Below the pieces are notes generated by a model. That model had not been told where the DNA came from. It made no database searches and saw only the letters and a list, made by a program, of their open reading frames with translations. The position numbers and the translations under genes are program-made. A stretch of DNA of 64,000 nt from Escherichia phage Pu-Krd-SF3: sequence record PQ249397, one strand, 5' to 3'. Shown one piece after another: positions 31,606 to 31,914 of this stretch (within the stretch, counting starts at the first letter, position 1; every line of letters begins with the position of its first letter).

Positions 31606-31914
31606 ATGAAAACATTTAAAGAATTTATCAATGAAGCGGCTGCGCCAAAGACATTCGTTATTAATACTCAGACGAGTCTTGACGATGAGTATGCAGAGGC
31701 AATTCTGAAGTCACTTGCTAAGAACGGCGTTGAAGTAATCGCCTCGGACTTTAAGAAAGGGGCTTCCGAGATGTTTATTTCTATAACTAAAGGATCTAAA
31801 GCTAAAATCAAATCATCATTCGGAGTTGCTCGTACCGATCAAATCGACAATCATGACTTTAAACAAACTGGTGCTAAACGGCAGAACACAATTGCATCAC
31901 GCGGAATAAAATAG
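31606..31914 (+). CDS. CTS-bearing small protein (candidate additional internal protein)
   Basis: 102 aa; N-terminus MKTFKEFINEA resembles the IP capsid-targeting leader. Confidence 0.5.
   Translation: MKTFKEFINEAAAPKTFVINTQTSLDDEYAEAILKSLAKNGVEVIASDFKKGASEMFISITKGSKAKIKSSFGVARTDQIDNHDFKQTGAKRQNTIASRGIK

Follow-up and report, generated by a model that had tools for sequence, protein, structure and literature searches.

All three internal proteins of bacteriophage T4 have been known since 2025 to disarm specific GmrSD enzymes. Ip1 (IPI) inhibits the GmrSD of strain CT596; for Ip2 and Ip3, a 2025 study reported two further GmrSD systems as targets, with no cross-protection (PMC12373910). In the same work, ip4–10 were assayed against those GmrSD systems that act on T-even phages and no new inhibition was detected; an apparent interaction between ip7 and CLS_011 proved irreproducible (PMC12373910, Supplementary Fig. 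9), and Ip4–Ip10 stand without a target. The negative result for ip7 is a weak one because the panel (15 representative GmrSD groups, 8 of them active) is small relative to a very diverse family. The entry of internal proteins into the T4 head depends on an N-terminal leader in which, according to a review of T4 head work, residues 4 and 7 count most for capsid targeting and residues 8 and 10 are decisive for processing, with gp21 cutting after the Glu of an L/I-x-E motif (PMC9026906). With respect to the genes themselves, Arbiol et al. (2010), with reference to Repoila et al. (1994), present the elements of the T-even internal-protein (IP) locus as analogues of PeSLs and give the number of IP variants as more than 30.

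Here we describe a short ORF of Escherichia phage Pu-Krd-SF3 that opens with a leader of this kind. The stretch of DNA analyzed, referred to as the window, comprises 64,000 nucleotides of sequence record PQ249397 and represents a segment of a T4-like (Tequatrovirus) genome. The coordinates of the relevant features are collected in Table 1.

Table 1. Features of the ip7 locus and of the head genes encoded in the same window
Feature	Coordinates	Strand	Description	Basis
gene 22	162–971	-	scaffolding core protein, recruits CTS proteins	Pfam T4_CASP, E=4.5e-89; role from PMC9026906
gene 21	1002–1640	-	prohead serine protease, expected trans-acting cleaver of the leader	Pfam Peptidase_S77, E=1.5e-111
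gp20 portal	2289–3875	-		Portal_T4
57B	30739–31194	+	left neighbour of the ip9–ip7 pair
Upstream repeat copy	31199–31247	+	57B–ip9 spacer; early promoter and hairpin; left border of the ip9–ip7 pair	fold -19.3 kcal/mol, z -2.5
ip9	31273–31545	+	companion internal-protein gene, 90 aa, MKTYQEFIAE↓A	97% identical to RB32 Ip9; PHROG 7673, E=4e-55
Middle repeat copy	31538–31586	+	ip9–ip7 spacer, 49 nt; chimeric, no hairpin	fold -4.1 kcal/mol, z +1.3
Early promoter motif of ip7	31546–31575	+	T4-type; GTTTAC 31546–31551, 15-nt spacer, TGgTACTAT 31567–31575	pattern scan; aligns with T4 57B–ipI, T2 and RB32 spacers
Shine-Dalgarno of ip7	31595–31598	+	AGGA, 7 nt 5' of ATG	directly from the sequence
ip7 CDS	31606–31914	+	102 codons + TAG; precursor of internal head protein Ip7	ORF list
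ip7 codons 1–10	31606–31635	+	MKTFKEFINE; capsid targeting sequence with predicted gp21 cleavage after Glu10 (I-N-E↓A)	leader motif, homologues, PMC9026906
Predicted mature Ip7*	31636–31911	+	92 aa, 9.9 kDa, pI 9.65; ferredoxin-like core aa 12–82, disordered basic tail aa 83–102
Downstream repeat copy	31919–31967	+	ip7–trna.4 spacer; right border of the pair	fold -16.4 kcal/mol, z -3.2
trna.4	31985–32167	+	right of ip7
trna.2	32170–32457	+	after trna.4

Identity and distribution of the ORF

The ORF runs from the ATG at 31606 to the TAG at 31912–31914, exactly as given in the initial annotation, and its 102-residue product begins MKTFKEFINEAAAPK. In a tblastn comparison, the product was 100% identical over all 102 residues to the ‘Ip7 internal head protein’ of T2 (BBC14756), and its amino acid identity to the Ip7 of RB32 is 99%. 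PHROG 2667 (‘internal head protein’) matches residues 1–102 with an E value of 5e-41. The RB32 record describes its protein as similar to the Ip7 of RB15 and K3. The Ip7 name of the T2, RB32, RB15 and K3 proteins reportedly follows Repoila et al. 1994. By these comparisons, the ORF corresponds to ip7, an already known, named polymorphic internal-protein gene of T-even phages; the kind of gene had been read correctly, but the gene is not new. Nor is it an unrecognised one, being named in the public annotation of T2 and RB32 and also in PHROG 2667. The suggestion that it may be strain-specific likewise does not hold, given the full identity to T2 Ip7 and its occurrence in at least 283 phage records: a tblastn search of 50,697 such records yielded Ip7 matches in 283, and the phages concerned name Escherichia, Klebsiella, Enterobacter, Shigella, Salmonella and Citrobacter as hosts. 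As a gene, ip7 offers nothing new: it is named and annotated and was part of an earlier functional screen; what the case does illustrate is that reading leader and promoter can pick internal-protein genes correctly from raw sequence.

A polymorphic slot between 57B and trna.4

The region 31200–32500 is 100% identical at the nucleotide level to Escherichia phage Pu-Krd-SF4 and 96–99% identical to many other T-even phages. The plus strand carries, in order, genes 4, 2, 3, 1, 57A and 57B, followed by ip9, ip7, trna.4, trna.2 and the tRNA cluster, which places ip7 in the polymorphic IP locus, at the position of T4 ipI. The slot between 57B and trna.4 differs among phages, as the initial annotation had supposed for this locus: it is occupied by ipI in T4, by ip5–ip7 in T2, by ip5–ip9–ip7 in RB32, and by ip9–ip7 in the Pu-Krd-SF3 window. 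In the RB32 record, Ip9 and Ip7 are jointly flanked by a 43-bp direct repeat. The presence/absence pattern at the slot fits an arms-race gene. By contrast, the description of the ORF as lying next to ipI was mistaken, since the upstream gene encodes Ip9 (97% identity to RB32 Ip9) and the phage lacks any mature sequence of the ipI type. The earlier picture of a candidate injected effector that has a capsid targeting sequence (CTS) and its own early-promoter motif and belongs to the IP set of the polymorphic slot is thus retained, but not its novelty or strain specificity.

Several observations were made on the neighbouring genes. The body of Ip9 without the leader (from about residue 18) has 33–49% identical relatives in phages with genomes far smaller than the ~165–170 kb of the T-even records; examples are Escherichia phage M01 (45 kb), ECP2304, and the Salmonella phages aagejoakim, Mansal, and allotria (~150–157 kb). 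Judging from these relatives, Ip9 may be a cargo domain that gained a CTS; nothing comparable was seen for Ip7. Escherichia phage OLB35 encodes a 77-aa ‘ip7 protein’ that is an Ip7/Ip9 chimera without a leader, in which Ip7 residues ~29–72 are followed by the C-terminal ~32 residues of Ip9 (beginning near residue 59). The two parts stand in the opposite order to the genes ip9 and ip7 of the window, a hint that cassettes may have recombined with one another.

Further downstream, trna.3 is missing between trna.4 and trna.2. The tRNA cluster consists of nine genes (Gln, Leu, Gly, Pro, Ser, Thr, Met, Tyr, and Arg), of which Tyr is a difference from T4; the CAU-anticodon gene called Met here may correspond to the tRNA-Ile of T4. 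A homing-endonuclease ORF (33135–33935, plus strand) is located inside the cluster, between tRNA-Tyr and tRNA-Arg, and at this site Pu-Krd-SF4 has a 666-nt CDS annotated as ‘homing endonuclease’, in the position of segB.

Promoters and repeats

The early-promoter motif ascribed to ip7 is present, although its coordinates (31547–31576) had been set one base too far to the right (Table 1). The pattern GTTTAC-N15-TGnTAnnnT occurs at 11 sites in the window, all on the plus strand and with constant spacing, compared with 0.22 sites expected from dinucleotide-preserving shuffles, and is thus far above chance, a real and repeated signal of the T4 early-promoter type. A generic sigma-70 scan did not list the ip7 site, at which we count 8 matching positions out of 12 (threshold, 9), and only the T4-specific pattern brought it out; a terminator scan returned none. 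We also sought the late-promoter box TATAAATA; none lies directly 5' of ip9 or ip7, the nearest upstream plus-strand copy being at 30134, within gene 1. An early-type promoter is the only type evident for ip7, a finding that we count against the explanation favoured below with regard to supply of the protein at head assembly.

A 49-nt repeat containing the promoter (family D1) is common to the 57B–ip9, ip9–ip7, and ip7–trna.4 spacers, and a second repeat (family D2) spans the Shine-Dalgarno sequence, the ATG, and the first 10 codons. Both outer spacers form stable hairpins centred on the -10 element; in the ip7–trna.4 spacer, the early promoter is found at 31927–31956 and the 12-bp hairpin at 31938–31965. 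In an alignment of the T4, T2 and RB32 spacers, the order GTTTAC, spacer, TGATACTAT, Shine-Dalgarno sequence, ATG is conserved, and the 5' end of ip7, from the -10 element to codon 7, is nearly identical in nucleotide sequence to T4 ipI. The left arm of the ip9–ip7 spacer resembles the ip7–trna.4 spacer and its right arm the 57B–ipI spacer of T4. Because its two arms match different spacer types, this spacer has the look of an ancient crossover within the promoter; RB32 carries the same junction. The cassette arrangement is in line with the published proposal of shuffling at the IP loci by way of conserved regulatory elements, which is an interpretation of the arrangement rather than proof of shuffling.

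Capsid targeting leader and cleavage site

The leader MKTFKEFINEA carries Phe4, Phe7, Ile8, and Glu10, so that the aromatic positions 4 and 7 of the MKT(Y/F)xEF(I/L)-type targeting sequence are both present. The only L/I-x-E in the entire protein is I8-N9-E10, followed by A11. Its first seven residues, MKTFKEF, are those with which T4 IPI starts, and T4 IPII and IPIII start with MKTYQEFIAEA; the leader of Ip7 combines the IPI start with the IPII/IPIII start. Relatives of Ip7 down to 52% identity retain the leader in the form of MKTYQEFINE, MKTYKEFIAE or MKTYQEFITE. Judged by sequence, the N-terminal decapeptide has every feature reported to be important for the T4 capsid targeting sequence, which bears out the proposal of an IP-type leader with an F-I-x-E-A context. 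A cut after Glu10 would create the new N-terminus AAAPKTFVINTQ, for which the corresponding peptide is AAAPKTFVINTQTSLDDEYAEAILK, and would reduce the protein from 11.1 to 9.9 kDa.

The gp21 protease, the gp22 scaffold and the gp20 portal are all encoded within the same window as ip7. By analogy with T4 IPI–III, the leader would draw the Ip7 precursor into the gp22 scaffolding core within the prohead, and gp21 would cut the precursor after Glu10; the 92-residue basic product, probably present in hundreds of copies, would then remain inside the head alongside the DNA and be injected together with it. A search of the searchable literature for virion proteomics covering Ip7 found none, and it is from the leader that we infer both the presence of Ip7 in virions and the cleavage. 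Packaging, cleavage by gp21 and co-injection are nonetheless well supported by the T4 analogy together with the sequence features, and we consider it very probable that the ORF is Ip7 and that its product is packaged and cleaved as outlined.

Counting ip7, a leader of the form MK[TS][YF]..[FL][ILMV]..E[AS] opens six ORFs of the window, every one of them on the plus strand. Two paralogous ORFs at 34398–34859 (153 aa) and 34978–35544 (188 aa), both on the plus strand, have the CTS-like leaders MKTYAQFLMTEASA and MKTYAEFLTEAAK. They are located just after tRNA-Arg, where T4 has rnaC and rnaD, a site separate from the classic ipI slot. The match for both is PHROG 2280 (‘unknown function’), and the 188-aa ORF is found in 164 phage records; all 25 rows sampled are labelled ‘hypothetical protein’ or unannotated (e.g., RB14ncORF136c). 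These ORFs may be internal proteins missed by annotation. At the position of the 153-aa ORF, the Pu-Krd-SF4 CDS (6699–6980) has only 282 nt, reflecting either a difference in sequence or a truncated annotation. Two more plus-strand CTS ORFs are situated at 39728–40009 and 40811–41386: the 191-aa one is 92% identical to T4 IPIII, and the 93-aa one matches T4 over the leader only and has several L/I-x-E sites near its N-terminus. In T4 itself, gene 61.1 (18966–19130, minus strand, 54 aa, hypothetical) starts with MKTFKEFIKE and has I-K-E at residues 8–10; its upstream region is unrelated to that of ip7.

Predicted mature protein and its relatives

With 15 Lys and Arg versus 10 Asp and Glu, mature Ip7 is predicted to be basic. 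The AlphaFold2 model, built from a shallow alignment of 12 sequences, has a mean pLDDT of 74.5, reaching ~86–93 at residues 21–80 and falling below 50 at residues 83–102. In the model, a core of beta-alpha-beta-beta-alpha-beta topology is followed by a Lys/Arg-rich tail, and the predicted core is a generic ferredoxin-like fold.

Pfam yielded sub-threshold noise only (Mur_ligase_M at 15 bits, with a cut-off of 24), and a sequence search of the PDB gave nothing credible, the best hit being a designed DARPin (E=0.022). A word-indexed protein search retrieved close Ip7 relatives only; at E<=0.001, the sole match to the model in BFVD was Ip7 of phage MX01; and when 1.84 billion representative proteins were searched exhaustively by HMMER with mature Ip7, three clusters came back, all Ip7-like. 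From the sequence, BFVD and HMMER results, it follows that the family is confined to T4-like phages and that the structure offers no functional lead. Since nothing related to the core is detectable beyond its own family, transfer of function by homology is impossible and, with only three clusters among the 1.84 billion representatives, CTS-less relatives elsewhere are absent, unlike the case of Ip9.

The initial annotation had also named identity to a T4 cytoplasmic protein as an outcome that would speak against it. This does not apply: tblastn of mature Ip7 against the entire T4 genome gave zero matches at E<=10. We separately considered ip7 as an orthologue of ipI and rejected this assignment, because the BLASTP alignment to T4 IPI covers residues 1–24 and is dominated by the leader, the mature part being without a T4 match.

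Possible functions of Ip7

By analogy with T4 Ip1–3, the most likely role of Ip7 would be that of an injected anti-defence protein. Once in the cell, it might block host defence against incoming modified DNA before phage gene expression, a step for which the argument is weaker than for packaging and cleavage. The most likely target would be a particular type IV (GmrSD-family) restriction enzyme, as for T4 Ip1, Ip2, and Ip3. Taken alone, the anti-restriction role is a tentative proposal to which we assign somewhat less than an even chance. Against the favoured explanation as a whole we count, in addition to the promoter type, the negative GmrSD screen and a predicted fold of Ip7 that is generic and unlike that described for IPI*. 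In the literature searched, no paper joined ‘Ip7’ with phage terms, and a time-resolved omics paper on T4 contained nothing on ip genes. Knowing the target of Ip7 would fill in part of the map of this phage–host arms race and might be of use in engineering the host range of T4-like therapeutic phages.

Alternatively, the defence inhibited by injected Ip7 could be one other than GmrSD, such as another modification-dependent nuclease, an abortive-infection sensor, or an exclusion system belonging to a competing phage. Such a target would be in keeping both with the active GmrSD panel, which gave nothing reproducible for ip7, and with a core that lacks relatives beyond its own family. However, each internal protein with a known target so far hits GmrSD, and the panel is, as noted above, a weak negative, so that we regard this alternative as somewhat unlikely. 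If it is true, the known reach of T-even internal proteins would extend past type IV restriction, and the family-restricted ferredoxin-like core with its basic tail would represent a new inhibitor scaffold.

It is also conceivable, though in our estimate distinctly unlikely, that Ip7 is packaged and injected yet has no specific host target, acting as a general DNA-associated protein in charge neutralisation or as an aid to packing or ejection. The basic character of the mature protein (pI 9.65) and the disordered Lys/Arg-rich C-terminal tail would suit such a role, as would the contacts of internal-protein lysines with DNA phosphates in T4 heads (PMC3012670) and the failure to find a GmrSD target for ip7 (PMC12373910). 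A generic role nevertheless leaves the presence/absence polymorphism of the locus and the shuffling of cassettes unexplained, and all three T4 internal proteins have specific targets, even though two of them were long held to be generic basic proteins.

Least likely, and in our view highly improbable, is that Ip7 is an ordinary cytoplasmic early protein whose leader is an unpackaged passenger of a recombining 5' cassette of promoter, Shine-Dalgarno sequence and first codons: the spacer repeat does continue past the ATG within the first 10 codons, the sole promoter seen is of the early type, and T4 gene 61.1, which is not annotated as an internal protein, shares its first 26 nt with ip7, but the T4 IPIII leader targets GFP, staphylococcal nuclease and beta-galactosidase into the capsid (PMC9026906), so that a leader-bearing protein present at assembly should be packaged, relatives as distant as 52% identity preserve the leader at the protein level, its changes being synonymous or conservative, and T4 ipI, with the same promoter and 5' arrangement, encodes a proven virion protein.

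Comparison with known systems

The Ip7 proteins of T2, RB32, RB15, and K3 have the same length, locus, leader, and flanking repeats as the protein described here and are 99–100% identical to it. In T2/RB32-type phages, as in the window, the gene is located downstream of ip5 or ip9 and upstream of trna.4, and nothing substantial differs from T2 and RB32, the partner here being ip9 without ip5.

With T4 IPI, the inhibitor of GmrSD-CT596, Ip7 shares the slot between 57B and trna.4, a near-identical promoter and 5'UTR, the first seven codons, and small size, but the similarity ends after the leader. The IPI propeptide, processed by gp21 after I-T-E, has 19 residues, whereas that of Ip7 is predicted to have 10, and IPI* has been described as two beta sheets with flanking terminal helices, whereas the Ip7 model suggests a ferredoxin-like fold with a basic tail. 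T4 IPII and IPIII, inhibitors of GmrSD-ECOR21 and GmrSD-ECOR17, respectively, resemble Ip7 in having a 10-residue leader that ends in I-x-E↓A (MKTYQEFIAE↓A versus MKTFKEFINE↓A) and basic mature proteins; they are encoded at another locus, adjoining e and denV, and show no relation to Ip7 in their mature sequences.

At the level of gene organization, the counterpart is provided by the PeSL cassettes of RB49 and phi1, in which genes of the hyperplastic region each follow an early promoter, a hairpin and a Shine-Dalgarno sequence and for which shuffling by recombination has been proposed (Arbiol et al. 2010). The T-even IP-locus elements are analogues of PeSLs rather than homologues, being based on the T4 early promoter, with weaker, AT-rich stems (Arbiol et al. 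2010). Compared with the PeSL, the Pu-Krd-SF3 locus has the promoter motif in all three spacers and stable hairpins in the outer two, with none directly 5' of ip7.
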